Counted from the stretch's first letter, positions 21,247 to 56,216 are shown. The stretch: DNA of 64,000 bases from Bilabrum cf. latius (GCA_965178125.1 OZ237747.1:124001-188000); one strand, 5' to 3'. The notes: generated by a model not told the origin, from the letters alone. Made by a program: numbers and translations.

Positions 21247-21300
21247 ACCGCATTCGTGCGAACCCCTGCGGGCTATAACTCAGCTACTAGTACTACCTGC

Positions 21301-21467
21301 GGTTGGCCCCCCTGCCAGTGGGCGCCGTGCTTGGACGGCTGGTTGGCCCCCCTTCCAGTGGATGCCGTGCTTGGACGGCTGGTTGGCCCCCCTGCCAGTG
21401 GATGCCGTGCTTGGACGGCTGGTTGGCCCCCCTGCCAGTGGATGCCGTGCTTGGACGGCTGATTGGC
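21301..21467. repeat. 40-bp minisatellite, 4 near-identical copies plus a partial
   Basis: Unit GGTTGGCCCCCCTGCCAGTGGATGCCGTGCTTGGACGGCT at 21301, 21341, 21381, 21421, head-to-tail with no spacers. Confidence 0.95.
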
Positions 21468-21979: not shown

Positions 21980-23270
21980 ATGCGCATCGGAGCTGTGTTG
22001 CTGCTCGCAACGGCTTCACAAGCAACCGAGCCACAATGCGTCTTCCGCACTGCTGAGGCAGTCTATGATTTGCGATCGTTGAAAGGAAGAGTATACACAG
22101 TTCCTTCGCCTTCCCGCATGTTTGATTACTCGGTTACAGTGTGTGGCAACGTGGATCCCCAGAAAGCAAACCCAAGCTGCCAGGGAATCGCGCAGACTCA
22201 CCCGGCCCCGATGTTGCAGCACTCCAACGACGGTTTTTGCTACTGGATAGGAAATGCGATGGAGCCGTATGCACAAGGCTACGACGGCTCGCCGTACTAT
22301 GGATTTGACCTCGTGTACAAGGGCGGTCAGCAATGCGGCGACGGTAGGCCCAGAGAAATGAGGTGAGTCGTCCAGAAATATCATTTATGTTGAAGTTATC
22401 TGACCTGATGCATACGAGTCATGTGTTGGCAAGCACGATACTGTGCTGGTGCATGTGCGCTCCTCACGACCTTTCTTTTCCAATGCGCCTCCTCGCAGAG
22501 TGCACTTCGTTTGCTCGCCGTACTATGGCGTAGATGAGGGCCCCAAGTACGTGACAGAGACCCCGGAGCGGTGCCACTACAACATCACGTGGCCCACATA
22601 CGCCGCGTGCCCCCGATCCTCCTGGACGTCCTTCCACGTGTTCGAGCCAGACGCCTCGAGGGGCTTCTTCGAGTTCCTCTGGGACGTGGGCAACTTCGCC
22701 TTCTTCTGGATGTTCATTATGGCCATGGCCTACTGCATGGGGGGCTGCTGCTTCCTGCACCACGCGCACGGTCGCAGGCTGGGATACGAGGCCATGCCCC
22801 ACCGCGAGTTCTGGACCCCGCACCTACAGAGGGGCCTGGCCTACATCCCCAGCGCCGCGCAGTCCATGGGCTTCCCGGTCCCCGTGCAGGCGAGGACGGG
22901 GGGAGGGGGCTCGGGCGGGCCCGGGGGGCTGGAGGACGACGACCTCGGGATCGGCAAGCTGCCCACCCGGACGGGGGGAGTGGCCGGGTCCGGAGGGGGG
23001 CGGGGGAACACGATGGGGGGTGCCTTCGGGGCGGGTGCCAGGCCGGGTCTTGCTTACGGGGGAGGGACGATGCCCTCGTTCACTGGGAGCGCAGGTCCCT
23101 CAGGGAACAGGAACGGAGGGGCAGCCCCGCGGTCGGACCAGGGTGCCTTCGCCGGGGAGGAAGAAGAGGAGGACGACGACCTCGACGCGTTCGCGGACCC
23201 GCTGGATCAGCGGCAGGGAGGGGGAGGAGGCAGGGGGCCCTCTTCACAGACCACGGGCCGGCGCAGGTGA
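21980..23270 (+). CDS. Mannose-6-phosphate-receptor/ATG27-like type I membrane protein (MRH domain); join(21980..22362,22499..23270), ~384 aa
   Basis: Signal peptide; YDLRSL, YSVTVCG, CYWIG, LVYKGGQQC..R...VHFVC, E..ERCHYNITWPTYAACP; TM helix followed by PHREFW. 136-nt intron; stop TGA. Confidence 0.85.
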
Positions 23271-23553: not shown

Positions 23554-25728
23554 CACCTGCGGCTGCTGCACCAGCAGCGACACGATGCTCCCGCCACCCC
23601 TCGCGTGGCTGGCGCTCTTGGGCAGCGCTGCCACTGTCTGGTCCTCCGTCCCCTCCCTGGTCACGTTCAGCAGCCACCTGTACCCGCCAGTCTGCACGAA
23701 GGAAGCCGTCAGCACGGAGCTCTCGTCCATCTGGTACACGGGCGTGCTGGCGTTGGTCCTGTCAACCGGGTAGTACAAAGAGCCCAGCACCTGCACGCGG
23801 GCCCCGTTGATCCCCCGCAGCACCGTGATGGGGCCCTCCGTCTTGTGCCCCAAGATCCACGCGCTGCACCCGTCGCAACTCAGGTCCCCAGGGACCTCGT
23901 GGTGGTTCTCCGTGTCGAACTGCCGCGCCCACAGCCGCTGTCCCGCGCGCATTCGCACCCCCGCGGTCGCCACGTTCTCCAGCATCACGTCGCCGGGCAT
24001 GGTCCCGCGGTCCAGGAGCGGCGCGTCGTCCCAGCTGCCCCCTCCGTGCTTGACCACCATGACCCGGCTCGAGTTAAGGACGAGCCCAGAGTGGTTCGCT
24101 GGATCGACCTGGTTGTTGTAGATGAGCATGGAGTGCAGCAGCAAGGGAGGAGGCACCGCGCACGGCTCCATACGCTCGCTTGCCAGGTGGCTCGAAGCCA
24201 AAAAGGATGAGTGCTGGGCTGGCACTGGCACTGGCACTGGCACAACGCGGTTCGGCGCCTCGTGCGCCTAGTGCAAGGCAGACCCCCGCAGGCCAGCAGC
24301 GGCGCACCTCGGGTCCTCCTCCCTGGCCCCGGGCTCGACGAGGACGAACGGCTTGCACGTCCCTCGGAAGGTGCCCTCGACGAACAGAGGGGCGTCGTTG
24401 AAGATCGCCACTCGCACGGATGCCGGGATCCGGATGGTGTCGTTGAAGGGGCGCCAGTCGTACGAGGAGTTGAAGCTCCCGTTGGGCGGGGCCACCCACA
24501 CGAACGGCTTCCCCTCTCGCATGGCTGCCTGCACCGTGCCCTTGCCCGGCCCGGCGATGGCCCAGTCGGCCAGGTCTGCCCCGGGCAGGGTGGGGTACGG
24601 CGTCTCTGGTGTCTCCACCACGGGCAGGTCCGGTGGCAGCGGACCTTCGAGAACGGTTGCGTTGAGCACGCCTAGCGAGGAGTAGGTCTCGATGGTGCCG
24701 GGCACTGGGATGAGGCCGGGGCTGCTGGAGACCGCGGAAGCATACCCAGTGACCCGCACCTGGCTTGCGAACAGCGCGGCAGGAGACTCCGGCGGTCCCA
24801 CCTGGGCTGCGACTGAGGACTGCGGGGAGGAGCTGAAGGGAGGGCGGGTCCAGTCGCCGGTGGTTTCCATGGAGCAGTTGCTCAGGACCGCGCTCCCGAT
24901 CGAGCTGCGGAGGAGCAGCCCAGGCGCCGAGGCGTTAGCAGTGATCGTCCGCATGCCACGCACGTGTACAGGATTGCCACCCGTGACCAGCCCTGCCTGT
25001 GTGAACCCTAGCAGCTGCAGGTGCTCGAAAGTGACAGAATACTGCAGCTCCCCGATGCACACGGACTGCTGGAAGCCGCGCACAGTCACGCGCCGCACCA
25101 GCAGAGGGCCAGGCCACGCGGTCTGCATCGACAGGCCGCACTGGCAGGCAGTCCCCGCAGATCTATTGCCTACGCTGCTCTCGTCCACGATCGACACGTT
25201 GAATACGCCGGCTATGTTGGACCCAATGAACTCGAGCCCGCGGGCACCGGGGTTGCCGGGACCCACGGAGATCGTCAGCGCGCGGAGGTAGGTCTAAAAG
25301 GCCACGTTGTCGCCCCCCTGCAAGTGTGACGTGCTGGAATGGGGCACTTGAATCACCGCCTGTGGATCTGACGCGTTCTAGAACGCAGGCGAGCGCGGTG
25401 CCAGGCGGATGGTGGCGCCGGCCTCCGACTCCCCTAGCATCTCGAAATAGGAAGCCGAGCTCCAGACAAGTGGCTCCGAGATCAGGTACGTGCCAGCAGG
25501 GAAAAAAATGTGACGACGTGCAAACTAGTGCCCGGCCAGGGCCACGGCAGCCTGCAGCGCTTCGGTATCGTCCGAGATGCCATCTCCTTTCGCGTTGAAC
25601 GGCGGATTCTTGACGTTCACCATGCCCAGTTCAGGTGGTATCGGGTCCCCGAGCCGCCTTGGTTCTGCGTGGGCAATGCCACTTAATACCACTGCTGCAA
25701 CAACGGTGCGCACATATTTTCTTGTCAT
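23551..25728 (-). CDS. Secreted beta-helix glycoside hydrolase (Pectate_lyase_3/GH55-like), intronless, ~725 aa
   Basis: Signal peptide MTRKYVRTVVAAVVLSGIAHA; VNVKNPPFNAKGDGISDDTEALQAA, IFFPAGTYLIS, IRLAPRSPAF[TAG]N, LTISVGPGNPGA, WPGPLLV, QRLWARQFDTE, WILGHKTE. TAG at 25525, 25378, 25294, 24268; stop TGA. Confidence 0.85.
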
Positions 25729-25812
25729 TGCGAATGTGCCACTCGCTCCCGATGGATCTGGATGATGAAGATCGCCCGGAGCGGTCGCAAACACGCAGCA
25801 CAATCCAAAATC

Positions 25813-26865
25813 ATGATGCGATTCTTCGGGAGACGTGCGCAGTCAGGGACTAGTATCCGTAGCTTTGCATCCTAGGCAAGTCGTGCCAGCGGTGCTGCAT
25901 CAATCAATCGAGAACGCCTCAAAGACAGAGTTGCAGTTGTATCCGGCGCCTCGACAGGGATCGGAGAAGCCATCGCAAGACGCTTTGCCCTCGAAGGAGC
26001 TGTAGTTGGTCTATTTGATGTTGACACAGACCGTGGAATAGAAGCGGCGAACCGGATCAATGGCTTGGCGGCGCTGTAGGGGGGGGCAGAGTGCGCGAGG
26101 TTCTGGCACGTTGATGTGTCGGACGCGGCAGCCGTACGTGCCGCTGTGAATAGCTGTGCATCTTGGGGCTCAGAATTGAAGCCGGTCGATGGGTACACGC
26201 TGCCGCGAATCGACACCTTAGTCAACAACGCCGCTGTATTTCGCTTCGCAGCCCCAGACACTGTCAGCGAGGAAGATTGGAACGTTTCTTTGGGCGTCAA
26301 CATCAAGGGATACTCAAACTGTTTGTAGGCTGTCCTGCCATTCATGCTGGAAGCGCCCGGCGCCAGAGAAGCAGCGGGCCTTGGAGAACCCGGAGGCCCA
26401 ATCCGAGCAACTGCCGGCGGCTCGGCGAAGGTCGAGGAGGGCGACTCCCCGAGAGAGGAGGACGAGGACCCCCGGTGGGTGCGGTACGGGGGCAGCGGCC
26501 CCTCCGTGGTGAACCTGTCCTCCATCAGCGCGGTCGTGGCGCAGGAGGGCTTCATCCCGTACTCGACCACCAAGGGGGCCATCCTGGCCTTCTCGAGGTG
26601 TGCCGCCCTGGATCTGGGCCGGCACAACATACGGAGCAACGCGCTCTGCCCTGGGCCCATCCACACGGAGGCCACCGATCGGCATGCGGATGCGCACGGG
26701 GTCTCTCTGGAGGAGATCGTGGCCGAGATGGAGCAGAGCCTGGTGCTAAAGAGGATGGGGGAGGCGGACGAAGTGGCCTCGTGCGCCGCCTTCTTAGCCA
26801 GTTCCGAGGCCAGCTTTGTGTCGGGGCAGGAACTGTTTGTCGATGGGGGGTACTGCAGGGTGTAA
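25813..26865 (+). CDS. Classical short-chain dehydrogenase/reductase with putative mitochondrial presequence, ~350 aa
   Basis: RLKDRVAVVSGASTGIG, IDTLVNNAA, VVNLSSI, YSTTKGAI, IRSNALCPGPIHT, FVSGQELFVDGGY. In-frame TAG at 25873, 26077, 26326; ends at TAA 26863-26865. Confidence 0.92.
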
Positions 26866-27033
26866 TATGTTCGGAATCACCCTAGCTTCTGGGTGCATCC
26901 CTGATTACGGCGCACGTTTCTGTCTCTCATGAACCTGCAGTGCGGCGCTTTCATCAGTTGCCATCGTCAGCTCGCGCACAATTTTTTCAAAAAGTTTCAG
27001 TGCTGCGGTGCTTCGGTAGAGGATGCTTTGAGC

Positions 27034-30000
27034 ATGGAAATTTTGGATCAACGAAATACTCTATTGCATCAGCTTGCAGCGGCAGTAGCACCCAATGCTG
27101 TCGTTTAGCAGAGAGCGACCGTTTCAAAGCTGTTGAATTCGGTTGATGTCGCTGCGACATCCCATGCAACTGTTGGAGCAGCCAGAGCGTGCGAATAGAT
27201 TGAACAGTAAGTAAATGTGTAAGATGTTCGCATCGGTTGAGCTTCCTATGTCGTCCATGCTTTGCTTTTTCGCTGCCGTGTCTATCCTGCCGCTCAGACT
27301 AGCAGACAAACTCGAGCAGAATGCTATGGATCACCGTGCTGGGCGGCTGCGGGAAGCCAAGCGGCAATGTTTGTTGCGCATCCTCCATTCCCGCTCTGCG
27401 CTGCTGCCCCGGCTGCGACAGCACGAGAAAGAGCAGATTCGTCGTCGTGCTTGTGAGCCCGCCTCACCGCGAAAGAGCGAGGATCGAGTCGCCTTTTTGT
27501 TTGGCACTCTCTTCGGCCTTGCCTCTCGTGTCAGTGCACCTATATCCGGCCCCATCACCCTGGATACGCGTCCTCAGAGCAAGCAGGACGCGGCAAACCG
27601 CCGAGACGCTGCCCTGCGAGAGGCCAGGGGGGGTCTCGAAGATCCCGACGAGGACCCCCAGGCGCGGCTGGACCGCACCCTGTCTCTGGATGACCTCGCT
27701 ACTGGGCTCTTGGACGGGCTAGGGGGCGATCTATCTCTAGATGCAGAGGACTTGGCGCCGCCAGAGCCGCTCCCGAGCAGCGGGCGGGTGACTGCCGCTC
27801 GCGAGCATGGGGGTGAAGGTGGGGGCCTCGGGGGGGCATAGGGCGGGGCCAGCGTGGGGTCTGGACCAAGGGGAACAAGAGAGACCATCGATGATGATGA
27901 CGGGTCGATGGACGAGTGGATGAGGGAGCGGCGAGGCGGGGATGACTCGGACAGTGGCACTGGCAATGACGACCACGATGACGACGATGATGACGACTCG
28001 ATTGCGTCCGGAACATCAAAGCCGAGGGACCAGTCGGGGCGAGCCACTCAAGATAGCAGCAGCGCAGGGGATGGGCAGCATGTAGGAGGGCCACTGCCAT
28101 AGATGGCGGGTACTGGCCTACCGCCTAGGCCTGGGCCTGCAGCTGCAGACGAGCAGCTGCTAGCGGTCTCCGCTGTCCCCGACCATTTCTAGCGTGGTGC
28201 CGCTGGGCGCACTTGTGCTCGCACGGTCACCCCATGGCACCCCGGACTGCATCGTGCCAGCCCGATACTGTCGCCCGTGGCTGCCTGCCGCGTGTCGGTG
28301 CCAGAGAGGAAGGATGGTGTGGAGAGGGTCTTGGTGCGTCCCGTGGGCGGGGTGTAGCCGCTGCGTGTGTCGGCGTGTGCTGCAGCAGACAGCCGACTTG
28401 GAGCGAAAGGATTTGCTGGTCTGCGATGGACGGAAGCAGGTCGTCAGGGGTGTGGCAGGGAGACAGCTATCACTGGGATGAGCATGGCTCGGCTGCGTTG
28501 GAGATGCCAGCAGTTCGATGTACACGCGGCTGCACCCATGGGCATTGGCTAGCTTCTGTTGCACGAGCTGGATCGCGACGAGAGTCTGCACCTTATTTTT
28601 CACGGGCTGCCCTCAAGGCATGCACGAACTGACAGACTGCCTCTGGACCCAAGGAACCGATGCAGCGCCATTCGGGTGCGAGCTGCCGTAGCCTGCGGTA
28701 TGTAGCGATGGGATGTCGGCTCAACATCTGAAGACATGCGCTCTGCCGGCCCTGTTCTGCTTGTGCCTGCGATCTCCACGATGCGTTCTGTTGAAACAGG
28801 TTCGGCATGGGAAAAATCTTCGGCCCGCGAGCTGCGGCGGGCATGCGTAGGGAGCAGCGCGCTTAGCGTGCTCAGGTGGCTGCTGGCGGTGGTGCTGCAG
28901 CCGGCCCCCATGTCACAGGCCAGCAGCAGCTCCAGAGGGCTCGCCGCGGCGGGGGGGCAGGAAGACGAAGGGCTGGGTCTATCGTGGAGCCTTGGTGGGA
29001 CGGCCCGCGCGGCGTGCTCGGCTCTGCAGCAGCACCTTTCGCAGTGGCAGCGCCGCGAGTGCAGGCTGGAAGCAGCGCGGTGGAAGGCTGGACGTGCGCT
29101 GCTCACATCGGGCGCGTCAGTTGTGCGGATTCAAGACTACCGTAGGGCTGCTCGAGCCGCGGCGAAGCACCGGAGCAGCTGCTGTCGTGCAGCCTCAGAT
29201 GTGTTGCGAGCCATGAGGCTGTGCCTCGGCGACCTCATCGATGCGGTGCAGTGGCCTAAGATGGGTGGCGGTACCGCAGCGGGATAGCCCCGGCCCAGTT
29301 TCGAGAGCAGCAGTGTGCGGTTGGAGGCCATGTGGTCCACAACGAGCCCACAGCACCACACGAGTGGAGTGGCAGCCGCCGTCCGGGAGCTGATCGGCGG
29401 GACTGTGCCCCGGCAGGGCTTCGTGGTCGTAGATTGCGACTCTGCTGAGCGTGGATCGGTGCCTTCGCCGAGCAGCAGGGCGGTGGCGTGTCTTGACGCC
29501 CTGCATGCGGCGCTGCAGAGACCACCCAGCGGGGGGAACGTGTCAGGCGCTGCCGTAGCACAAGAAGCAAGAAGGTCAGCATCCGGGGAAAGCCGCCTGC
29601 TTCGACTGACTCCACGAAGCACCGCCGATTCTCTCGGTGTCGACGTTCGAGAGGCGTGCAGCCGACTGGACGCAGCTGCAAGGGGCCACCCAGTCACTGC
29701 GTCCGCGAGCGCCCGTTTGATGCCTGCTTCTGGTGATGCTGATGCTGATGCCTGTGCGTATGCTGATGCTGAGGCTCGCCCAAGTGATGCATTCACCGCA
29801 AGCAACTATAGCACAAATGGCCGTGCTTGGGGAGCTAGTGCGCCCAAGAGCGAACTGGCACCTGCTGCACTGTTTGATGCATTTTGCGCTGGATTGGGCA
29901 GCTTCTCAAAGTCGCTGGACCGTGTTGCTTTCGATGGCATGGTGTCGCAGCAGAGTGTCACGATCAAGCGTGGCGGTGCAACTCGCGGGACATACTCCCC

Positions 30001-33000
30001 CTCCCCTGGCCGGGGATCTGCACTGGCTATGCGTTCAGTGCGCCGGCAGCTCTTGGCCGCAGCCAGGGCCCACCGCTCCCACGAGCGGCTGTGCACCAGG
30101 GAACTAAACGTCGCCAGGCTGCAGCAGACGGGCAGCGCGGCCCCTCAGCGATCAGGCGGCGGCGCAGGCAGTCCATCTCGGGGGAGGTACACCAGAGCCT
30201 ATGCGGTCGCCGGACGCCTTGGCCTGGCGGCTTCATCACACGGGTGGGCTGCGGCATTGGGTGGGCCCGTGCTGCGTGTGCCGGGGCTGCAAGTGCCCCG
30301 CGTGCCGGCTGGGGTGGGTCGCAGCGAGTTAAGCTGCGCGGAGGCCCGTTCCGTGCTGCCCCGCTTCATGCATGGCCAGCTGTCAGTGTTGGCGCGGGCT
30401 GTTGGTCTCGTGTCGCAGCTGCATGCGGCGGCTGGGACGGGCCAGCACCACCAGCAGCAAGCAGCCTGGGGCAGCCCTAGTGGCAGCGCTGCATCTATTG
30501 CCCGCGTCGGTGTGGCCCGGTCTGAGGTGCAGTCCATTGTAGCGCAACTGCGTGGGCATGCCTCACTTCCACACATGGTCATGGCTGCGTCCTGCCAGGT
30601 TATGCAAAGGGGCGCCTTCCAAGCGGGCCGCAGAGGAGGGGGTGCTGGTGGTATGGGCGCGGACCGGGCTTCCCGGTCCGTGTCATCTACCACACAGCTC
30701 GAGGTGGTTCCGAATGCCGTTGCGATGCAGACTCCGCTGCAGGATGGCAGCGACAAGGAGTTGCGGGCAGTCGACGAGGCACTCGGCGAGGCGCCAGACC
30801 AGCTTTCTGCAGCCTCTGCTGATACCATGCGTCCGTTGGACGATGCAGGAAAAGGCGTCATCGAAGACACAATCATGGAGGCGCGTGCTTCTTCGATCGA
30901 AGTGATCAGCTTGGTGAGCGATGGGGAGGGGCAGCCCGGTGGCGACGCTCTGCCTACCCTTACTGAGGTCGATGAAGACCGAAAGCGGCTAGTTGCCGGT
31001 CTGCTGGGTCGTGATTCGGCATCCAATGGCACCGCGATGATCAATGGGGATGATGCCGATGACGTGCCTGACTCCGCCTCCGACTTGGCGCGGCAGAGTT
31101 CGAGCCCAAGGCACGGCGCGGGCACTGACGGGGCCACGGGCCAGTAGTCCGACAGATGGGGCAAGGGTGACGCAACCGCTCGATTCTCCCGGCTGGATCG
31201 CGCCCAGCTTCCACTCGCGGCCATGACGGAGGGACTGAATGGCAGCCGCGCAGCAAGGGGGGGCATGGAGGGTCACAGGCACGGCTTTGAAGGGTGTGGA
31301 CCAGCTTGCCGCGGCCAAGGCCGGGAGGATGGCACGGGCAACGCGGCGAACGCAAGTCAAGATGCAGGCTTGCATGGCCTTACCATGCACGAGGCCTGGT
31401 ATGGGCTGTCGCTGTCTGGGAGCACGGGGGGTGCTGATGCAGTCATGCGAGTCACCGAGCAGGCCCTCTCGTGGCCGCTAGATGCGCAACTCGCCAGAGC
31501 GCAGGCGGCTTTGGCGCGACTGGCCTGTGAGCGGCTGCAGCTGGGTGCGCATTTGAGAGCCATGCGACGCATACTGCTGGGTGTGGACGGCCGGTTCATG
31601 GCGGCATTCGCCAGCGGCATGATTGAGCAGGTGAGGCGGCCAGGCGGTGGTGTCTGGCTTCTGGTTCCCGGGAGGCTGACCCGTCTGCTGCAAGATTCGA
31701 TCGTCGCCGAGCTGCCGAGAGAGCACACGATCTTGCCCGAAAAGCACGGGGTTCTGGAGGAGGCGACGACGGGGCATCGCGTGGCTGCATCGCACGCAGG
31801 GACTTCGGGTGCCGCACCTGGTACCGATGACGGCAACGAGCAGCAGACCGCCGACAGGATGGACAGCCTGATTGGCCAGGTATCGCAGGCAATGCATGCA
31901 GAGCGTGCGTTGGGACAAGCGGCCCACGAAGTGTGGCCGGCCTCCATCATCCCGTCACGGGGCGACGATTTGCCTGCCGATCGGGAGCCGCGACGCATGC
32001 CACTGAATGCGCTAGTGTCGCCAGGGGGAGCTATGTTCCCTGTCAAGGATGCCCTGGCCGCCAGCGGTGCATCAATCGATGATACTGTCGCAGCCAGGAG
32101 ATCTAGAGCCCATCAGGGAGCTCATGCGGCCCTGCTTCAGGCACTAGAGTCGCATTTTAGCCCTTACACCCGGCCGGCAAGCGCTGCTTCCATCGTCGAC
32201 GTCGGGTGCTTCGAGATCAGCCTGTCCGCCCCATAGGCAGGATCCCTAGGCCCTGCGCTCCTGCTTGCCCCCGCCAACGACCTGTCGGCGACTGGCGACG
32301 CCGTTCTGGAGCTTTGCAGGCGCTTGTAGGGCAAGTATGCAACTCCGGCGGGGCTCGAGGCGGTGCTTGGCCCCGAGGTGTCTAGCAGGTACGGCCGGTG
32401 CTTCTAGTACCTCCTTGGTCCCGCAGTCGTGCAGCTTCTCATCAACAGTGGCGCTCCGTGGGTGCGTCAGAGCCGCAACCAGCTGGAGATTAGTTTGCGA
32501 GCGATCCATGGTGCTGCGCTGCGGCAGTGGGCGGCCTACGACCAGCTGGCTCGCGAGTCCGCCATGCAGACGGCTGGCTGGGAAGGGCAGCGGCGGATCC
32601 AGAGCTTGCTGGGGCCAGAGGTTGGGACGGTCAGGGATGCGGGGGAGGCTAGCAGGAAGGTGTCGATGGCAGCGGGGCTCACCCTGGCGCTGGTGGTGGA
32701 GGCTCACGCTTGGTTCCACAGATTTGACGTAGCTGAGCGTGCTGCGAGGGCTGCAGTAAACGCGTTACGCACTGCGCTGTTGGGGGCAGCTGCGACCGGT
32801 GCCGTGCTGTGGAGAGCGTTGGACGAAGAGGTTTCCGCATCGATGTCGCTGGAGCGGATCGACTCGGCGCACATGACTGCGCTGCGGCACACTGAAAGAT
32901 CGCTCATGCTTAGCGACGGCTAGAGTTTAGAGGGCGGTGCAAAGAAGCTGGATAGGCTGCGGGCTCCCATGGGTGACGGGGCGCATGCTGCATCTCACTG

Positions 33001-33475
33001 GCGCATGCAAGGCAGGAAATCGTTTGCGGAGATCCTGCAGCGGGCCGTCGATGCCTGGCGGTGCGCATAGGATGGTAGGACGCGAGTCAAGAGAGCCGCG
33101 GCAGCAGCTGCTGTGTGCTTCCCCAAGCCCTCGCTCAAGAGCATGCGATCGAACGGTCGAACCGGTGGCCAGGATGACCTGGTGGAGACTACTGCGCTGC
33201 ACTCGATGTGGGCCGCAGCGCCCGGGGATCCAACAGAGGGCGGTGGTGAAACCGGTGACTTGGGTACGAATACGCGCCTGCTTGCAGGGGGTGCGGCAAA
33301 GCTAATCGAGCTAGTTGAAGCGGCGGCGCGCGGTTCAGACGCTGCCACCGCAGCGCGGGACAGGCTGCTACGTGAGGCTGATCGGATCAAGGAGCTGTCC
33401 AAGGCTGCCTCCTCAAGCGCGGATCCTGCAGATGCACCTTACGCGCTGTCTCTCTTCATACAAGCCTTGGGCTGA
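27034..33475 (+). CDS. Divergent gamma-tubulin complex component (Spc97/Spc98 family, GCP5/GCP6-like); join(27034..27206,27298..33475), ~2,116 aa
   Basis: Seven ORF fragments in one frame joined by ~15 TAG. GRIP2-like motifs LQLGAHLRAMRRILLGVDGRF, L[TAG]GKYATPAGLEAVL...RYGRCF[TAG]YLL, SLERIDSAHMTAL. Helical N-terminal exon via a 91-nt intron; stop TGA. Confidence 0.68.
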
Positions 33476-33668: not shown

Positions 33669-36600
33669 TCAATGCTCCAAATCGCATCCGGGGAACTCTC
33701 GCCGCAGGTTGGCCACCTCAGTCTCATCCATGCGACCCGCACACACAGCCCGCAGCCTGGCGAGGCTCGGGCACCCTTGCATCAGCATGCGCAGACTCAA
33801 TGCAGAGCACTGGGGGACCCACGACACGTCCAGTTGCTGCAGCTTGGTGAGCTGCAACACGCAAGTCTCGATGGCCTTGTTGGACAGGCCGTGCCACCCG
33901 TGGACGGACAGATCTACTAGGCTGTCCTCCGAGCCGCGAATCAGCTTTGCTAGCGACTCATCCTGGTCGTGCTGCGTGATGCCACTAGCAGATGGATTAG
34001 ACACGTGCAATGACTCGAGGTTGCCCACAACCTCGAGCGCCCTACCAAGATCGTCCGCGGTAAGGAGGGGCATCTGTTCCGCGCGGAGCCTCCTGAGAGA
34101 GAGACAACCCTCAACGATGTGCTTGAAAGCGCGCGGCTTAATCTCGCAAGCGGACACATCCAGCTCGATCAGCTGCTCAGCGAAGCGACCGCTCACGATC
34201 TGCCGCAGGCCATGCTCCGGGTGCGCGGCGAACTTGAAGCCACGCAGGCTGATTGACTCGAGCAGCGGGCAGTGCTTGGCGAAATACAGCGGGACCGGTG
34301 GGTCGAGGAGATCACACCCGCTGAGATCCAGCTTCTTGAGAGTCTCCGCCGCTGCCAGCCTCCTCTCAAACAGGTCGTCCAGCAGGGCCTGCCCCCTCAC
34401 CTCGGTGCAGTCTGCCAGTGAGAGCTCCTCAAGAAGCGGCAGTTGCAGCAGCGGGCGCACGTCCTGAAGCTTGAAGGCACCAGCAACGCTCAGCCTACGC
34501 AGCAATCGCTGCGTGCTAGCGAGGTCGGCCGCCACTTTATCATCGACCTCGTGCGAGCACTGCTCCAGCACCAGCTCGGTGAGTCCGCCAGTCTTTGAGG
34601 TGCGAATGGCCGCGATCACGTCGCAGCGCAGCCCCGTTAGCCGCAATTTCTTGATGCTGGTGCATCGCTGCAGTGTGTCTGCCAGCGATTTGGTCTGCAC
34701 CATCTGCGCTGCTCTGCCCCCGACCTGCAGAGTCTCCGCAGAGTCCATCACCCAGAAACTCATCGCATTGCCGGTACTCAGCAGCCCCTGCTCCCGCATC
34801 AGCACTGCTGCCATCTTGTCTGCCACCTGCTGATGCGAGTCGCCCACCCGCACGCGTGTGGACGCGATCTCTTCGCCCTCCGCTGCAGAAGCAAAGTCCA
34901 CTGCCCGGCGAGGAACCACCGCTTCACCGAAGCCATCGCCATCCTCGCCGTCCGCCTCCATCGCACTGGAGGCGGCCGCGCTCGATGAGCCCAGCAAGCC
35001 TTCACCGTCTGCACGACCGCGCACATCCAGAACCGCTCCGACTGAGAACGGCCGGAACCTGGACACCTGTGCTTGCACTCCATCTACAGTATCTGAGCTA
35101 TAGAGCGCCTCCCCCATGCGGGCGATGCGCCTCGAGCACAGATTCTGCAGTGACGGGATGTGTGCCAGCTGCAGCGTTGAGCCTGCAAAGAGCCCATTAG
35201 TCGTGTAGAACTGAGTGGATGCGTCTTCAATGGTGACCAGCGGTTTGCCGGTACTCCCCCCTCCGGTCTACGACCCAGCCTTGGACTTGTCTGGCCGCTT
35301 CCGTTTCATGCCGGCAGTAAGAGGGGCGTCAGAGTCGGGCTCACCGAAAGGGTCGTCATCGCCTGAGGATTCATCACCTGCCAGCCCTTGCTCCTCGGCG
35401 ATCTGCTGCTGCGCCGCCTGGATGGCCTCGTCGCGCGCCTGCACCGCCGCCTCGATGTGCGCCTTGAGCTCCTAGCCTATGTTGTTGACGCACTACGTCG
35501 CCAGACCGTATAGTAGCCCCATCAACTGCATTGGAACAGCAGCCTGTCGGTTGTACTGATACACCGCCTGAAACGTCTGGATGATGATGCCCTCCAGGTG
35601 CTGCGGGCTCTTGGCGATGATCTTGAGGCTGGGATCTGTGCTAGAGAGAGCAGATTTGAGCCCCAACACTGAGTTCTCCAGGTCGTGCTTGATGTCGGAG
35701 AAGAGTGGGTTCCGGGCGGTATCCAGCATCGGGCGAAGCAGCCCGTGCTAAGCTGTCCAAGAGTCCGGATCGCCGGGCACCATCACGCCCTCCGGCATGG
35801 CTCGGGCCTGAGCCAGAGCGGAGTGCCCCGCTGACGCGCCCACGATCGCGGCAGCGGCGGCTCCCGTGCCGTCCCCCTTGTCAGCGCCAGCGCCAGCGGC
35901 ACCCGCCACACCGGCTGCCGGCCCCTCGGCAGCGGGACCATCCTGGCCCAACGCCGCTGCAATGGCGGCCTTGTTGACTTTGGAGACCCCGAGCATCGTG
36001 GTGTCGTCGTCTGCCTTGCGGCTGCGCTTGTCCAGCACAACCCGCATCAGGTCTCCCAGGCCAAGCTTGACCGAGACGGGGGGCGCATCCGAGAAGGCCG
36101 CAGTAGACAGCGCCATCTTGGTAGTCTTGAGAGACTACATGCGCTCTTCCACAGTGTTGAACGCAACGAAGCGCCACACCTGGCACGGCCGCGGCTGCCC
36201 CAGCCGGTGGCACCTGTCGATGGCCTGGTGCTCCAGGGAGGGGCTCCACCACTGGTCCACGAGGAACACGTGATTGGCCTCGGTCAGGTTGAGCCCGAGG
36301 CCGCCCGCCATGAGGCTGATCAGAAACACGCCGAATTCCGGCCTCGTCTAGAACTTGTGGATCTGGTCTTTGCGCACCTCCTCAGACATGCTGCCGTCCA
36401 GCCGGCAGAGCCTGACCCCCATCTTGCGGATGGCCGGCTCGATGATATCCATGAACGACACGAACTGCGTAAAGATGATCACGCGGCTGGACGGATCCTC
36501 TTCCCGCACGCGAGCCAGCTGGGCCAGCACAGCGCGCATCTTGGAGGAGTGGAACGGCACCTCCACTTCACCGCTGGCGCCGTACGTCATCATGGGCCGC

Positions 36601-39600
36601 ATCTTGAGCACGGACCGCCCTGCGCCCTTGAGCTCCACCATATCCAGGGCTTTCAGCAGCGGCCCATTGAGCAGTTTCTGCAGCTCGTCTCGCGGCATGT
36701 CCAGCCTCTTCTTGCGGATGTCTTTCAGCAAGCGAGCCAGCTGCGCAGACACGTTGGAGCCGGCAAAGTCCATCACCTTGTCTTGCAGCCGGGCCGCCGC
36801 AGCCTCGTTGGCCACGTCATCATTTCCAGCCGCCAGCTCGGCCGCAACCTCCCTCTCGTCTCCGTCGCCTATCTCGTCCACGCCGCCTGCGTCTTCCTCC
36901 GCATCACCATCCCCAGCGGCTCCCGCTCCAGGCCCGCCTAGCATGCTCAGCGCAGATTTTCCCCTCTTCTTCCTCAACCTGCTGCTGGACCAGCCGCCGC
37001 TGCTCGTGTCCTCAACCTCGTCTTCGTCGCTGTCCGACTCGACGGCGGCCCTGCTCTTCTTCTTCTTCCGCCGCTGCGGGCTGTCTAGGATATCTGCAGC
37101 ATTGGCCCACCCCGCATCCTCGTCGACATCCTCGTCATCGTCGACGATGAAGCCATCCAGATTGTCTTCATCCTCGTCGTCGTCCCTCATCGCGCCTACC
37201 AAGCGAGGCGCTTTGAATCCGCCGGAACCGACTGTGAATGCAGCAGTTCCCCCATGCCTGGCGCCCAGGAGCATCCGCCGCTCCCGCTGCTTCTGTCGCT
37301 GCAGCCGCGCCTGCGCCTTACGCTGCTTCTGCCGGCGTACGACCTGCAGGAGCTGGCTGTCGTGGAAGAGTGCAGGGTGGCAGCAGAACATGCGGAGTCG
37401 GAGGAGGGTCACGAGCACGTTCACCCACTGCGCCGCGTGGCTCTTGGAGTTCTTGAGCACCTTGTCCAGCTCGGTCTGCTCCCTCTTCTCGATCTCCTTA
37501 TAGGCAGCCATCTCCTCCTCGCTGAGTGGGTGGCACAGCAGGGTCTCTCGCTTAGGAGGCATGGCGACGAGGGCCTGCTCCATGACCCCGGTCCTGTCGG
37601 ACTTGACCCGCCGCAGGACGTGGGAGCTGAGCGTCTCCTGCAGCTGCTTGATGGACATGAGCACCTGCCTCTGCTTTTCGGTGGGGAGTGGCACCTTGCC
37701 GTCTTTGCTCTCCAGCGACTTGAGCACGTCATTGTCGATCTGGCTCACGAGATCCAGCCACACGTTGTGGAAGCACACTGGCTCGATGAAGCAGAAAGCC
37801 AAGAGGCTCTGCACGTCATCGAAGGTGTTGTGCACCGGTGTGCCGGTGAGAACCCACCTCCGTGAAGACTTCAGCAGAGAGGCCGCATGAAACCCTTTGG
37901 TTCTGGGGTTCTTCACCTTGTGCCCCTCGTCCAGCACGATGCGGAACCAGACAGTGCTCAGCAGAGGCCGCGGGCGGGAGGCAGACGCAGGCAGGTCTGG
38001 CACGCCCTTCTTCCGTCTCACGCGCTTGGCCGCGCTCCCGTCAGTTCGCGCTCGCTTCGCTCTTGGGCCTTCGTCCTCCTCATCACTGCTGTCCTCGCCG
38101 CTAGAGTCTACATCCCCGGCGGCATCTCCTTCGAGTCCATCAGTAGCCTGCCCGCTGGCAGCAACAGCTGCGAGCTGGGCCTTCTCCCGAGCCCGCGCTG
38201 CCGCTCGCTGCTGCGGCGTGAGAGCCAGGGAGCGAGAGCCGTTCATGAAATTGCGCCTAAAGTCCTGCATCTGCCTCGAGGTCATGTGCTACAGGGACTG
38301 CTCGATTCCGATCATACCCGACTCGTGGATGCGATAGCATAGCTCAGCATCCCTGTGATCCACTTCTGCCTCTCGGCATAGCAGCGGAGTGGGCAGGCCG
38401 TTGCTGGGATCCATGCCCACCGCTTTGCTGAGTCGGAAGAAGTTCACTTTGGAAAGCTTGGAGACTCTGACAAAGTACCGGCTGTGTGGATCGGCTAGCT
38501 CATCGGGCAGCTGTGCGAGGCTGCCTCGGGCTCGCCTCCCCCTCCTCTCCAAGGGCCCAGCGAACACGGGAGGCGCCTCCTCCCAGTCCTCGTCGACCAC
38601 CGCATCGTCGTCCCTGGCCAGCTGCACAGCGCTTACAACCTCCCGCCATTTGCCGGCCGTATCCTCCCATTCGCTGGACCCTGTTGCGGTCCTACCGCCG
38701 CCCTTCCGCCGCTTCTTGCCACCTTTTTCAGTCGGCCCGCTAGCCGCCATCTTGTCTTGCTGCCGAGCCCACCGCCCGAGCACGCGGATCTGGGCCTGTG
38801 CCACGTGGGCGCGGACATGCTCGGTGTACTCGGCCTGCGCTGACACCACGGCAAGAGTGGGTATCGGTCGGTTCTTGATGGTCAGCTGTTGCCCTTTCCG
38901 TGAGCTCTTTGATGCAATGCATGAAGTAGCGTAGACAAAGAGCTCACGAGATAGCGACTTGCAGGGTGCCGCCTCACCAGAGGCCAGCGCCTCGTCGGTC
39001 TCCTTCATCTCATCCCGCTGGATGGCTGTCATCATCTTGCCGCCCTTGCCCTTGGCTGTGATCAAACGGTCACTGGCCTTAACCGCGACAAAGTCGGCTG
39101 CATCAACCGGCTCGTCGTCGTCAATCTCCTGACCAAAAGCGTCAGGTGCCGAGTGGCTCGACTGGCTCAGCGGGCTGCTGAATCCGAGCTGCGCGTGACT
39201 GAGAGCACCTGCTTTGCGACCTCGTCGCCGCGGGGAGCCCATGGCGTCCTCCTCGTCCTCGTCCTCGTCCTCGTCCTTGTCAGATGCAGATTTCCCCCGG
39301 GCTTCCTGCTACCTCTCGGCTCTCCGCAGCACCTTCAGCTCTGCCTGATTCCAGCTCTCCTGCAGCACGCTCATCTTGCCCTCGCACACGTCGTGATCCT
39401 TCAGCTCGCCCATAGCCCTATCGACGTACGGCCAAATGTGTCGGTGCCGCAAATCGCCCTCTCTGAATGGTCGGCCCACCTCGTTTGCCAGCGTGCCATA
39501 GGTGGTGATGACCACGTCAGCCTTATCGAAGCCAGACAAGTCCCGAGTACCATCTCCATGGTATACGTGCACCCTCAGGGCGTGTCTCCTGCCGATCCTT

Positions 39601-40868
39601 GTGCCGATCTCGTGGACCCACTGGTGCAAAACCGAGAGGGGCACGACGATGAGAGTCTTGTTGGACTCGCCTTGTTCCCTGAAACGCATCTGATGACCCG
39701 CGACCTGGTGAGAGTGGTGGCAGAAATTAAAGTACTTGTGGTTCTGCTTGATCTCGCGCTCCCGCCGGAAGAGCTCAGCTGGGGCCTCTGCCTCTGCCCC
39801 TGCACCTGCACCTGCCCCTGCCCCTGCCCCTGCAGCTGGTACCCCGTTCGGCTGCGGCTGCGGCTCCGGCTGGGGCGGATCCGCCCGCGCCGCGTTCTTC
39901 TTAGCCCCGTCGTCGCCCGAATCGCTGTCACTGCCTCCCTCAGAGTCACTCAGCTCGATGAACCCGCCCTTGGCAGAGCCGCTGCCTTGCGGTTTCGAGG
40001 AAGGCGAAGCCGAGGCCGAGGCCGAGGAGGAAGACGAAGAAGAACTGGAACCTGGCTCTTCTGCGCCTTGGCCATTGCTGCTACTGGCCCCTTTCCAATC
40101 GAGGTCCAAATCGTCTTCATCGCCCATCATTCGGACACCCCGGTTACGGACAGCAGCCTGGATTGATTTGGTGCGGGCAAACGCAAGCGGGTTGTAGCGA
40201 GCTGGGACCATAGAGGGCCGCTCGTAGTCGTCCAAAAAGCACGATACAGCGTCTTGGCAGCCTCGTGGAATCACATGGGATTCGTATCGAGCCCGGTACG
40301 CTTGCGGAGTGTTGGCAAGCATGGTAGCGATGCAGGTAATAGTTTTGCCTAGGCCTTGGTCATCGGCTAAAACTCCACCCCCGCTGAGGTCCTCGTGTAC
40401 ACGCATCCATAAAAGTCCCTGGCGCTGGTGCGGGCGCAAGTCAACCTTCAGACTTGGCGGGATTCGCAAAGAATCTTCAAATCTAGCGAGCTCGCGTGTA
40501 ACCTGCTCGCGCTGGTTCCCAAGGATTTTATAGATGCCAGCGACCACCCCATAGTCAGTTTCATTTAGGTTGTCATCAGCCTGCTCCTCTTCATCCTCCT
40601 CCTGGCTTCTGGTGTCTGCTTGCGGACCCCCGTCCGTCACAGCACTTGCTTCGCCAACCTCGTTGGGCTCTCCGGACTGGACAGCAACTGATGCGGCAAC
40701 CTCACCCGCAATCATGCCATCGCCATCGTGCGAATTCTAAGGCTGCAAGTCTAGGTCTCGTGACATTGTCGATGCAGCCACAGCGCGTTGCTCCTCCTCT
40801 GAAACCTGTTTTCGTATCTAGTTGATGAATTCATCGTCGCTGTCGTCAGAGGAGTCAGATAGTTCCAT
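33669..40868 (-). CDS. RAD5/RAD16-family SNF2 ATPase fused to a RAD7-like BC-box + LRR module, intronless, ~2,399 aa
   Basis: Motifs in order: [86 protein letters not shown], then IPSLQNLC and Cys-containing LRRs. One frame with 10 TAG (40818, 40737, 39309, 38289, 36348, 36135, 35748, 35493, 35472, 35268); stop TGA. Confidence 0.85.
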
Positions 40869-41139
40869 TGTTTTCTTGATGCAATAAAGTGTATCGGACT
40901 AGAGACGGTTGCAGCGAGATGGGACTGCCAGCACGACTACTTTTCTTCCAATTCGGACCGAGCGAGGATGAGGACAAAAAATTGGTGGATCCGGACGGTG
41001 CGCCCCGGCAAAGTTGCAAACAAGAGAGATCTACAAATTATGCGTGTAAATTGGTACACATGCAGCAATGTGTCAGCTTCACAGTCATTGCTGGGCTCCT
41101 TGCATTACGCGGTCCACACGTTCCATCGCCCAGGTTCAT

Positions 41140-52173: not shown

Positions 52174-52513
52174 TTACAGCAATTGAACGTGAAACGCCAG
52201 GAAAATATGCAGAAAATGAGCAGCAGCCTCACCAACTGCTTCGGGGTGGACTCGAACTGCGCTTCCGTCCATCCAGTCGACCTTCAAAATAATATCCTGG
52301 CGAGTTGTGCCCACTCAGTGGTAGGCACAAATCTCAAGCCAGTCGAGGGGACAGGTTCAGGCGTCCCGTTTCCCTTGGATTGAAGTGCTTTTGGGTGCAC
52401 ACACGAATTATTTTGTGGCTGCTGGATTCGAGGTCGCATCTCTTGGTCGCAAAGATATGTCGCCCAGATTGCGGTGGGCTGACGGTGGCGTACACTGGCT
52501 CCAACGATTCGAT

Positions 52514-54604
52514 TTATCGAATTGAGCACAACTTAACGAGGTCCGCGAACGTCATGAGCGGCTCCTCCACTTTCACGCCCCCAAGTGTCCCCTCGCCTGA
52601 CCGCGGACTGCCTGCCGCTGTTCCGCTTGGGACCGCCCCCACCTCCTCGATGGCGGCCTGCGAGGCCCAGCGGCGGGCCAGCTACATCGCCTGGGGCAAG
52701 GTCACCGGGGGCAAACAGCCCGCTCTCCTCAGCCCCCATGCAAGTTCCGCAGCCGTGATCGCGCGGCGCCCCCCCCGGTCCATATCCCGGAACTGCTCCC
52801 TCAGCGAGAGGGGGTATGCGCCCAGGGACGAGGCGGCCCGCCGACGCAACTCCTAGTCGTGCCCCCCTGCTGCAGCCTAAGCACCTCCTCTATCTCCTGA
52901 GAGCAATTGCGCCGCCGCTGACGCTCTAGTGCCCCTTGCATCAGCCCAATCGTGGCCGAGGGAGCCTGAGTGCCCAGCCCCAGCCCCAGCCCCAGCCCCA
53001 GCCCCTGCGGCACGAAGCAGCTAGCTCGCGGTTGCAACCGCCCCACCATCCCTTGTCAGCTCACCAACCTCCCGCGCGAGGGCCTCTGCTTGTTCCCTGG
53101 AGGCGACCACGCCGTGCCTCCGCAGAATGTCCACCAGCTGGCCCGCCGTGGCCCGGCGGACCCCGCGGCTGTCAGCACTCGTCACATCGGCAAACGCCCG
53201 TCGCAGCGAGTCGCCTGTTGCACGGATAGCCAGAGCCTGCAGCAGGCCGGTCAAAGCCGTATCTGCACCGGCACGGTCTGCCTGTGCACCTTCCGCAGGT
53301 GGAGTCGGCGCGCTGGCGGGCTCCACTGGCGGTTGCAAACTAAGAGGCAAGCTTTCATTTGCGCCTGTGCCGGTTTCTGCTACTTTCTGCCGCTTCCATG
53401 TAGGGCCATCTGCGTTGCTTGTGCTTGGAGGTGGAACCGCGACGGCAGGACCCCATCGACCCCATCCTCGCCCGCTCGCCTCGGCCGGTCCCTACTCGGG
53501 CACAGCCTGCTGCATGAACCGGTTTAGCTCGCCGGGGGTGAGCAGCAGCAAGGGCACATCACCATAACCGGAATCTAAACCTTGTTCCCTCCCGGTCTCG
53601 GCCCGATCGAAGGGTGCCGAGAGGGTGCCACTGCCGCTGCTGCTGCTGCTGCCCCCGCCGGCAGTCGGCAGCTGTGGCGGCACGGCAGCACCCGACCCCC
53701 TCGGCAGCTGTGTCTTGGCGGAAGGAGTATAGGGCACGAGTATTCGAGCGAGGTCATGCAAATCGACCTGGCGGTGCATTCCCTCTCTCCGTAGACCGGC
53801 GGCCAGGTCCTCGAGAGAGAGGCGGGCATCGCTCCGGCGGCTGTACGAGAAGAAGACCTCCGCCGAGCTCGCATAGTGGCCCCGGAGCACCGACAGGACC
53901 TCGTCCAGCACGCCCGAGAGCTCTGCATCCTGCTCTCTGCGGGCACGAGCCCTAGACCGGATGGCATGGGACGACGTCTCTGAGCCCTTGGCGATGCGGC
54001 CTTCGCAGGTGTGGTACCGGCCCTCGAGCGCGCCGGTTAGTCCTGCGCACAGCTCCGTGTAATCGATTGCGCCTGCTGCTTGGGAGCTATACTTCTGCTG
54101 CATGGCCACTACTTCAGATGGCTACAGAAAAACGCCCGCATTTTGGGCGACATACGCGAAACAGCCTGCCGTCACGTGCCCAACCGACCTCTTGTCCACC
54201 CGTCTAAATGCTCGCGATGCTGTGGAGCCGAGACGGTCGTGCATTCCCATCCCAATAGCAACTTCTAGTGCGTAGATTTCTTGCTCACACAACCCCCTGC
54301 TGGCCTGTGAGCTTCGTTCCGGCGGCGAAAGCGTGTCAACTGCAACTGCCTGCAGCTTCAGGCCAGCCCCAGGCGCTCCACGAGAGTTATCCAGTTCGGT
54401 TCCAAGGCTCATATTTGTAGCAGGAAGTGACACAGGAAAATCAATTCGCGGTGCTGCAGAGCTTGCGATGAGTCGTAGCAGCCTCGACAGACAAGACCTG
54501 ATTTCTCGCGCAAGTATATGCGATTGCTCTGGGGTGATGTGGTACCGAGCGAGATCTCGCCGGAATCTAGTAAACTCCAGAACAAGTGGAGCATCGACAG
54601 ACAT
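52514..54604 (-). CDS. Multi-EF-hand-like (degenerate) protein, ~696 aa
   Basis: Segments AFRRVDKRSVGHVTAGCF, GAIDYTELC, LSLEDLAAGLRREG, LRRAFADV, LREQFRDMDRGGRRAITAAELAWGLRRAG. One frame with TAG at 54122, 53492, 53021, 52877, 52853, 52682; ends TAA 52514-52516. Confidence 0.65.
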
Positions 54605-55082
54605 GCGTACCGACTGCTGCAGCAGGCGACGCGGAGATTGGCAGGCCGATGGCACTCCGGTAGTGTGATCATGTTGCGACCGAGTGACTGGCAGATATGC
54701 ATGCCGCGGGGTGGCTGCAGGAGGCAGTCGGAGTGCATTGGTAGGCGATGCGTCAACACAGATGTTCGAAAGTATAATTGGACAACTTGAATCAAGCTCT
54801 CCCCAAGGGCACTTGGCCGGGGGTATACAGCCAGGCCGGCTGCGGTAGTCCGTTGCCTCGTGGCTGGGCCTAAACGAAACGTGCATGCTGCATCCTGCAA
54901 CCCGATGGCCCGCGAGTGTGACCTGCAGCAATGCACTTGAACGGATCATTCGAATCCTCCATCAAATAGACCCAGTCCCAGGCGGCGACCGCTTCATGCC
55001 GACCCGTCTGCCCCTTGTCACTCGTCCTGCTCGTCGCTTGCGGCAGACCAGAACCAGGCAAGTGCCCCGTGGGCGCGCATTA

Positions 55083-55167: not shown

Positions 55168-56216
55168 TCAGCAGCACTTGCTGTCGGGCTCCGGCGGCCT
55201 GGTGATGAGCTTGCTGTCCCTCTTGGGCGGCGCCCTGGACCGCTTGGGCACCCTCCTGGCGAGCTCGGTGAACAGGTCCGTCACCTTGTCGCCCGTCTTG
55301 GCGCTCGTCTCCACGTAAAACAAACCGGTCGAGTCCGCGTACTCGCGGGCCTCGTCGGCTGATACCTTGCGGCTGTCTGCTAAGTCGCTCTTGTTCCCTA
55401 CCACTGCGCGCAGGGGGAGTGGGGATCACGGGCGTCCAGCGTGGTGGAGCATGCAGGAGGGTGCACTGCACGGCTGACTTGGGGAGGGCGCTGCCCGCAC
55501 ACCGATGGGATGCGCAGCAAAATGACTGATGGCAATAATTCGAGTTTTCTCACGCGCAATGGTCACTCCAGGCTCTGCGTGTCGTTCCAAATCCTGCACC
55601 CATCGCTTGGCCCCATCAAACGTTTGAGGATCCGTGATATTGAATACTACCGCAGCCGCGACGGCATTTCTATAGTACATTGGTGCAATTGATCTATATC
55701 TTTCTGCGAACCGAATGGCACACGAACGATTGAGGGTGGTGTGTTGACCGTTGCCACGCCATGGACCTGCAGGCGTGCAGCCGCCACGTCTCACCTTGTC
55801 CCGCAGTATCCCACAACTCTAGCTTGATTGTCGTTCCATCTTCGAGACCAACGTCGCAAGAATGGAATGCAGCTGCGAAACGAGGATAGCGACCGCAGCA
55901 TATGGCCAATAAAGTCTCCCACAAAGTACCCAAAGCAAGCTGCTTGCCAGGAATGGGATTCATGCTTACCTCCAATGGTGGGATCTGCGCACAAAGTAAG
56001 GAGTGAACATTTTAGAATTACTGTGTTGCTATATACCCTCCTGACAGATGACATATGTGATTCAATGGCAAGCCAACCGCAAGCCTTCAGACTTATCTTA
56101 CCCTGGTCTGGGTCAAACTCATCACGAACCATTCGTTGAACGAGGCAAGACTTTCCAACGCCGGCATTCCCAACAATCACCACTTTACATGAGAACGATG
56201 ATCCTGCAGCTGCCAT
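55168..56216 (-). CDS. Rab5-family small GTPase; complement(join(55168..55403,55554..55703,55795..55872,55970..55984,56102..56216)), ~197 aa
   Basis: [45 protein letters not shown], ETSAK and C-terminal CC; four GT-AG introns (117, 97, 91, 150 nt) with consistent phases; stop TGA. Confidence 0.9.

Follow-up and report, generated by a model that had tools for sequence, protein, structure and literature searches.

Genes and General Features of the Locus

The window, i.e., the whole 64-kb stretch of DNA that was analysed, has a G+C content of 64%. Under the standard genetic code its longest open reading frame (ORF) comprises 1456 codons. When TAG was read as a sense codon, ORFs of 3677, 2467, 2323, 2086, and 1507 codons appeared, and these gained at most 47 codons each when TAA was also set to sense. 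The ORFs of the window harbor eukaryotic Pfam domains of the HECT, WW (three copies), short-chain dehydrogenase (SDR), RabGAP-TBC, SNF2 plus Helicase_C, and adenylate/guanylate cyclase (two copies) types, and further domains of a 2OG oxygenase, a sulphur transporter, Band 7, TMEM18, and WDR54. Biosynthesis genes are represented by histidinol dehydrogenase (HisD) and a FolD-type THF dehydrogenase/cyclohydrolase. We counted 19 genes in total, with TGA as the stop codon of 17 and TAA as that of the other two; the first-pass annotation had listed 18 genes ending in TGA.

The two genes ending in TAA are the SDR gene (25813..26865, + strand), with 350 codons, a Pfam adh_short_C2 domain and three in-frame TAGs, and an EF-hand-like gene (52514..54949, - strand), with 811 codons from the first ATG and six in-frame TAGs. 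The GCP-like gene (27215..33475, + strand; 2086 codons, 13 in-frame TAGs) and the SNF2-family gene (33669..41072, - strand; 10 TAGs past the first ATG, one of them in the motif IHKF-X-TRPE of the helicase C domain) both end in TGA. The ORF of 1507 codons (57501-62021, - strand) has 14 TAGs and long runs of the dipeptides GQ, RS, and GA, and no Pfam domain was detected in it. Three occurrences of W-TAG-P or W-TAG-Q were noted in it, next to a single W-CAG-P, which is an anecdotal observation.

The SDR gene and a GH55-like gene (- strand, first ATG at about 25728) are arranged divergently, with about 85 nt between the start codons (25726-25818). Contigs from the sequencing run X5 end within a few bases of both ATGs. 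Together with the short gap, these contig ends suggest a very compact bidirectional promoter and very short leaders. In the intergenic region 21259-21973, between the WW-domain gene and an ATG27-like gene, the contig of a syntenic relative has 3591 other letters; this difference is an insertion or replacement between the two genes.

Introns are scarce and have GT..AG ends. One of them (22361-22496) is spliced out in an X5 contig, which shows the joint 22360/22497. The density of introns is very uneven: the gene for a Ras-family GTPase (55171-56216, - strand) has at least four exons separated by short, AT-richer introns, while neighboring multi-kilobase genes are without visible introns. The GTPase gene has a C-terminus defined by its family, ...KCC, followed by the stop codon TGA at 55168..55170 (- strand); the -CC end is presumably the prenylation motif. 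A (GCAAT)n microsatellite at 55100-55160 lies directly 3' of this stop codon. The HisD ORF starts only at position 45 of the Pfam profile, and its first exon should therefore be located within 18365-18897. An orthologue of this gene on a JGI metagenome contig (locus L001) has a GT..AG intron after the first exon (L001 379-722).

We concluded that the window stems from a GC-rich, compact, and intron-poor eukaryote. Ciliate genomes are AT-rich, and their macronuclear chromosomes are gene-sized or gene-dense. The window has a G+C content of 64%, canonical GT..AG introns and multi-kilobase genes. A ciliate origin of the window is very unlikely.

Occurrence of TAG, TAA, and TGA in Coding Frames

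To our knowledge, UAA and UAG nearly always change meaning together. We compared the number of the three triplets in the coding frame to their number in the two shifted frames over 18 ORFs with 18,823 in-frame codons, the ORFs being delimited by TAA and TGA. TAG occurred 94 times in frame and 94 and 86 times in the shifted frames. TAA occurred 30 and 42 times in the shifted frames and never in frame, in agreement with the earlier statement that the modelled genes lack in-frame TAA, and TGA occurred 302 and 286 times in the shifted frames and likewise never in frame. TAA is avoided in frame as fully as TGA, and TAG shows no in-frame avoidance.

To check whether this delimitation made the result circular, we examined ORFs that were bounded by TGA alone. 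In these ORFs TAA was present only at codon 3 of 1103, codon 25 of 2112, codon 46 of 3724, codon 815 of 875, and codons 104 and 497 of 510. All these TAAs lie outside of the coding body.

When counting was started at the first ATG, 18,236 codons remained, with 89 TAGs distributed over 14 of 17 ORFs and with no TAA. TAG thus makes up about 0.5% of the codons. The other 5 of the 94 in-frame TAGs are located upstream of the first ATG or within the HisD intron. On the model of the CAA/CAG ratio (105/615), 15.2 TAA codons were expected and none was observed (P(0) = 2.5e-7). Even with the lowest ratio of A-ending to G-ending codons as the model (CTA/CTG, 0.10), the probability of finding no TAA was 6.9e-5. 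At the scale of the window, in-frame TAA within conserved domains, which the first-pass annotation had named as an observation that would speak against UAA as a stop codon, was absent from all 18,236 codons.

TAGs were found inside the SDR, SNF2 helicase-C, and TBC domains. The stretches with the highest conservation (FolD, HisD exon 2, the two cyclase domains, HECT, Ras GTPase) are free of them, and they are common in low-complexity regions throughout the window. This distribution is in line with a codon that, though tolerated, is kept away from places where accuracy or speed is important.

The TAA at the End of the SDR Gene

The last six nucleotides of the SDR gene, 26860-26865, read GTG TAA, with the stop codon at 26863..26865 (+ strand). 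As originally counted, the gene has three internal TAGs, which are found at 25873-25875, 26077-26079, and 26326-26328. The ORF matched the Pfam profile adh_short_C2 with an E-value of 8.6e-47 and also adh_short, and the match extends to profile position 235 (of 236), which corresponds to residue 347 of the 350 residues.

The C-terminus was compared to those of homologous proteins. A syntenic relative, which is about 8% diverged (about 92% identical) and present in two metagenome runs, is represented by the protein fragment P0023 (181 aa, 87% identity, from a contig of 16,163 nt). It ends with ...FVDGGYCRV, identical to the SDR protein of the window. The homologues P0024, P0025, and P0026, with 59%, 53%, and 52% identity in the best local alignment, end with ...DGGYIIS, ...DGGYSAQ, and ...DGGGTAR, i.e., three residues past DGGY or DGGG and at the same position as the SDR protein of the window. 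The claim that TAA stands where proteins of the SDR family end thus held for the profile as well as for all four homologues.

The sequence 3' of the TAA was scored by the log-likelihood ratio (LLR) of codon usage under a coding versus an intergenic model, given per codon. Reference values were 0.32 ± 0.24 for coding windows and -0.44 ± 0.28 for intergenic sequence. The 12 codons between the TAA and the next in-frame TGA (26866..26904 including the TGA, + strand) scored -0.40 and look non-coding. The similarity to the DNA of the syntenic relative ends at 26861, two bases before the TAA, and resumes at 26999. An X5 contig spans 25817-26873 with 0 differences, leaving all three TAGs and the TAA unchanged. 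It ends 8 nt past the TAA, which is only a hint at the end of a transcript and not a proof.

The SDR protein contains an insert of about 45 residues rich in G, A, E, and D (26360-26500), which follows the LPxM helix, precedes the NLSSIS strand, and is absent from all homologues. The G+C content climbs sharply at this position. In the relative the insert is diverged and 8 residues longer. Possible explanations are an expansion segment and an unspliced element that stays in frame.

The TAA at the End of the EF-Hand-Like Gene

The EF-hand-like gene has in-frame TAGs at 54122, 53492, 53021, 52877, 52853, and 52682 (- strand) and the TAA at 52514..52516. The six internal TAGs and the terminal TAA were as first described. 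The designation as an EF-hand gene was not equally well founded: it goes back to a sub-threshold Pfam match (EF-hand_6, E = 0.0033; 17.5 bits, with the cut-off at 25), and the label is therefore weak.

The fragment P0144 of the relative (83% identity) ends with ...VKLCSIR like the protein of the window. A much more distant homologue, P0153, ends with ...VKLCSSS at the matching position, and another homologue, P0150, extends 9 residues further. The 59 codons between the TAA and the next in-frame TGA (52334..52513 including the TGA, - strand) scored an LLR of -0.19 per codon and look non-coding; among 309 coding windows, 3.6% scored -0.2 or lower. As judged from the aligned protein ends, both terminal TAAs are positioned at true, homologue-defined C-termini, to the residue. 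The relative was seen at these two C-termini in the form of predicted protein fragments and not by its stop codons.

One alternative is a code in which UAG and UAA both stand for Gln and UGA is the sole stop codon. TAA would then be rare because of the GC bias at third codon positions, and the two TAAs would be sense codons in short C-terminal tails. TAA is indeed the rarest of the three triplets on the + strand of the whole window (132, compared to 343 TAG and 684 TGA) and scarce in every frame, with 72 out-of-frame occurrences in the ORFs. Furthermore, the SDR protein would gain only 12 residues by reading through to the next TGA, an extension that should be tolerable, since PDB homologues have up to 10 residues past the last aligned position. 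This code is nevertheless very improbable. It does not account for 15.2 expected and 0 observed TAA codons, or for a triplet that is found out of frame and never in frame. The proteins of the relative and of more distant homologues end at precisely the residues where the two TAAs stand, the codon statistics 3' of the TAAs look intergenic, and the similarity to the relative breaks at the SDR stop codon. The same lines of evidence, i.e., codon counts, homologue-defined C-termini, non-coding 3' statistics, and the similarity break, bear out the initial proposal that UAA is still a stop codon while UAG is sense.

Another explanation would be a dual, context-dependent meaning of UAG, as a sense codon within genes and also as a terminator near their 3' ends, beside UAA and UGA. 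Dual meanings have precedents in Blastocrithidia, for UAA, and in Condylostoma, for all three stop codons. In the cyclase ORF, TAGs precede the TGA by 6 and 51 codons, and a gene truly ending at TAG would pass unnoticed, since the ORFs were defined by TAA and TGA. Against such a dual use, conserved coding sequence continues beyond TAGs, e.g., beyond codon 760 of the EF-hand-like gene, and no TAG is found at the C-termini of the SDR protein, the EF-hand-like protein, the SNF2 protein (which has the same EH end as the relative), or the Ras-family protein with its -KCC end. A TAG at a conserved C-terminus, the second observation named beforehand as contradicting the proposal, was not found among the C-termini that are independently defined, which number only about 5. 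We regard a dual meaning as quite improbable, though not to the same degree as UAA being a sense codon.

Evidence for Translation of the TAG Codons

In public collections the proteins of the syntenic relative occur as pieces of 93 to 621 residues. Two of these fragments end exactly at TAGs of the window, at codon 1674 of the GCP-like gene and at codon 703 of the EF-hand-like gene, and thus at least two TAG positions are common to the window and the relative. Sequence conserved in the relative runs on past TAGs of the window: at codon 760 of the EF-hand-like gene the relative has E, and the similarity extends from there to the common C-terminus.

The in-frame TAGs could in principle be untranslated, belonging to pseudogenes or to unrecognized introns, being removed by RNA editing, or resulting from assembly errors. 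Indeed, the 5 TAGs 5' of a first ATG or in the HisD intron do fall outside of coding sequence. For the whole set of TAGs the probability of this explanation is close to nil. Decay or introns would add TGA and TAA to the frames, and neither was present there compared to 94 TAGs. The TAG positions common to the relative likewise speak against it, and so does the presence of the window sequence in four independent runs at 0.99 of its words.

The contigs of run X5 are transcript-like, as judged from the GT..AG joint, the presence of gene-bounded pieces, and a depth varying from 8 to 183; the automatic rating of this run was 'RNA? (probably DNA)'. The run records suggest that DNA data plus probable RNA data are available, which should permit comparisons of tRNA and eRF1, although none of the runs that contain the sequence is recorded as RNA. 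The X5 contig that covers the SDR gene keeps the TAGs and the TAA unchanged, which speaks against removal of the TAGs by editing or splicing.

We also searched for further relatives. The search with HisD in JGI metagenomes resulted in 80 loci, and among the 22 that were tabulated (L001-L022) only L001, with 90% identity, was close. For most of L002-L022, the longest frames gained at most a few codons when TAG was read as sense, which suggests that their hosts use the standard code. The HisD ORF of L001 is closed by TAA, with a tail that exceeds that of HisD in the window by about 14 codons; the stop codons are thus not positionally orthologous, and this TAA is weak evidence. The C-terminal 482 residues of the SNF2 protein gave 597 pattern matches in JGI metagenomes, none of which encoded a relative. 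A protein atlas search with HisD retrieved only HisD clusters dominated by bacteria and thus provided no clue to the taxonomy. In the search with the SNF2 protein a single fragment of the relative was found; it lies 3' of all TAGs of the SNF2 gene in the window and has the same EH end.

The Amino Acid Encoded by UAG

The GCP-like gene was the chief source for direct comparisons between TAGs of the window and residues of the relative. Opposite its TAG codons 446, 497, and 691 the relative has Q, R, and R, and opposite the TAG codons 647, 695, and 760 of the EF-hand-like gene it has Q, W, and E. Fragments of the relative have five internal ends, which correspond to CAG, CAG, and GAG in the window and to the two TAGs mentioned above. 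The CAG, CAG, and GAG at the three non-shared ends are each one step from TAG. Altogether 9 informative close pairs were available, with Q in 4, R in 2, E in 2, and W in 1; in the direct comparisons of TAG to the relative, Q was present in only 2 of 6. Summing BLOSUM62 scores over the 9 pairs, done by hand, resulted in 24 for Q, 15 for E, 11 for R, 7 for K, -5 for S, and -20 for L.

More distant homologues were compared at single TAG sites. In the SDR column X173 (TAG at 26326), 107 homologues have K (45), R (35), Q (20), A (6), or H (1), and the three closest ones have K. None of the 107 has L, S, E, Y, or W at this position. The SNF2 motif IHKF-X-TRPE aligns with F-Q-TRPE in INO80 and has H in Rad5. 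The TBC site AWA-X-SLF aligns to L or F in all five PDB chains, and the SNF2 column X1645 contains M (14), L (2), V (1), and D (1). One distant homologue of the EF-hand-like protein has S at X760. The TAG sites of the GH55-like protein lie in stretches that are poorly aligned in the PDB comparison. In the PDB search the Band 7 protein had no match, and the C-terminal part of the GCP-like protein had no relevant match.

From these alignments, Gln would be the best single reading of UAG, and we consider it probable. It is unlikely that UAG, as a sense codon beside UAA as a stop codon, stands for Lys, Glu, Arg, Leu, or Ser, or that near-cognate tRNAs decode it ambiguously and without a fixed meaning. 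Points in favor of such a reading are R, R, E, and W of the relative beside two Q at TAGs of the window, K in the closest SDR homologues and the composition of the SDR column (K in 45, R in 35, Q in 20), and the presence of L, F, and M at the positions aligned with the TBC and SNF2-1645 sites. Moreover, codes with a reassignment of UAG alone are known with Leu (rhizarian exLh) and with Ser (Scotinosphaera). On the other hand, Q is the commonest single partner (4 of 9), internal stops of the relative twice fall on CAG of the window, which is one transition from TAG, K, L, S, and Y are opposite TAG in none of the 9 close comparisons, and INO80 has Q in the otherwise identical context F-x-TRPE. 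The absence of L, S, E, Y, and W from the SDR column points in the same direction.

Two specific assignments found no support. Leu, as in the rhizarian exLh, was present in none of the 9 close pairs and none of the 107 sequences in the SDR column, and hydrophobic residues were aligned to TAG only at the TBC and SNF2-1645 sites. Ser, as in Scotinosphaera, was equally absent from the 9 pairs and the 107 sequences, and S was present only at X760 of the one distant homologue mentioned above. Since the residues opposite TAG vary (Q, R, E, W), there is still room for decoding of UAG by a tRNA or in a manner that has not yet been seen.

Discussion

On the evidence of the window, UAG and UAA are likely to be uncoupled, with UAG as a sense codon and UAA together with UGA as stop codons. 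With UAG probably encoding Gln, the code behaves like NCBI table 15, i.e., the Iotanema type.

Decoding of UAG would require a tRNA whose anticodon is CUA, which should be unable to pair with UAA. Most simply, such a tRNA would have arisen from a mutated copy of tRNA-Gln(CUG). The release factor eRF1 is predicted to have lost or weakened its recognition of UAG and to have kept the recognition of UAA and UGA. Within the 64-kb window neither a credible tRNA gene (ARAGORN; 0 hits in Rfam) nor a gene for eRF1 was found. ARAGORN reported a tRNA-Thr(GGU) of 94 nt at 61180-61273 (+ strand), opposite to the coding strand of the 1507-codon ORF in which it lies. This tRNA was not supported by Rfam and probably represents a false positive caused by the GC-rich sequence.

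The code of the window would be a further case of the known but rare reassignment of UAG alone. It is possible, but for now short of probable, that it represents an independent and so far undescribed origin of a UAG-only nuclear code like table 15 in a GC-rich, UGA-terminating, non-ciliate microbial eukaryote, and that at least two sampled species, probably three, have this code in common (the organism of the window, the relative with about 92% identity, and the source of the JGI contig with 90% HisD identity). In the literature covered, i.e., main texts outside of subscription journals, UAG = Gln was not found to be described for any GC-rich non-ciliate lineage besides Iotanema.

Each lineage with uncoupled UAA and UAG is a natural experiment on how eRF1 discriminates the third base of stop codons, and such lineages also probe whether a CUA tRNA is sufficient for the capture of UAG. 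The reports used here name few nuclear cases, namely Iotanema, the rhizarian exLh, Scotinosphaera, and several ciliate lineages (PMC5304391, PMC8271138, PMC11687900). A GC-rich case with UGA as the main stop codon would give an independent data point under the opposite pressure of base composition. Since gene callers that use the standard code fragment the genes of this lineage, they should be annotated with table 15 and not with table 1 or table 6.

Comparison with Known Codes

The closest counterpart is Iotanema spirale (Fornicata), which is reported to have UAG = Gln and stops at UAA and UGA, with UAA dominant. A tRNA-Gln(CUA) plus an altered eRF1 with the substitution T32G in the GTS motif is the predicted mechanism there, and a tRNA with CUA anticodon reads UAG and not UAA, with a precedent in Tetrahymena (PMC5304391). 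As in the window, UAG alone is reassigned (in the window probably to Gln) while UAA retains its function as a stop codon, and the predicted mechanism is alike. Unlike Iotanema, with UAA as its main stop codon, the window uses UGA in 17 of 19 genes at 64% GC, and it encodes genes for histidine and folate biosynthesis.

In the rhizarian exLh, UAG encodes Leu, and the same source counts 56 UAA and 15 UGA stops (PMC5304391). This is another non-ciliate protist with UAG and UAA uncoupled; however, Leu lacks support in the window. The green alga Scotinosphaera sp. reads TAG as Ser, with TAA and TGA as stops (PMC8271138). It shares with the window the reassignment of UAG alone outside of ciliates and TAA as a stop codon, but Ser is absent from the close comparisons of the window. 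The non-ciliate precedents of UAG-only reassignment differ from the window in base composition, and their main stop codon is UAA, compared to UGA in the window.

Among ciliates, Protocruzia tuzeti and two phyllopharyngean lineages are listed with UAG = Gln (PMC11687900), and over both sources the UAG-only codes of Protocruzia and phyllopharyngean ciliates are given as Gln or Leu (PMC11687900, PMC5304391). One ciliate is reported to use UAA for Lys and UAG for Glu (PMC11687900, PMC5304391). The code with UAG = Gln corresponds to NCBI table 15 and is formally the same as in the window (TAG = Q; TAA and TGA as stops). The ciliates with table 15 differ from the window with its 64% GC, GT..AG introns, and multi-kilobase genes.

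Code 6, in which both UAA and UAG encode Gln, is attributed to many ciliates, some ulvophytes, hexamitid diplomonads, Streblomastix, and Amoeboaphelidium (PMC11687900). It resembles the window in the probable assignment of UAG to Gln and in UGA as the main stop codon, but the window is without sense UAA and has TAA at true C-termini. Finally, crAss-like and Lak phages are described as using code 15 with TAG = Gln and stops at TAA and TGA. Those are phage genomes recoded against their host, whereas the window belongs to a eukaryotic nuclear genome.
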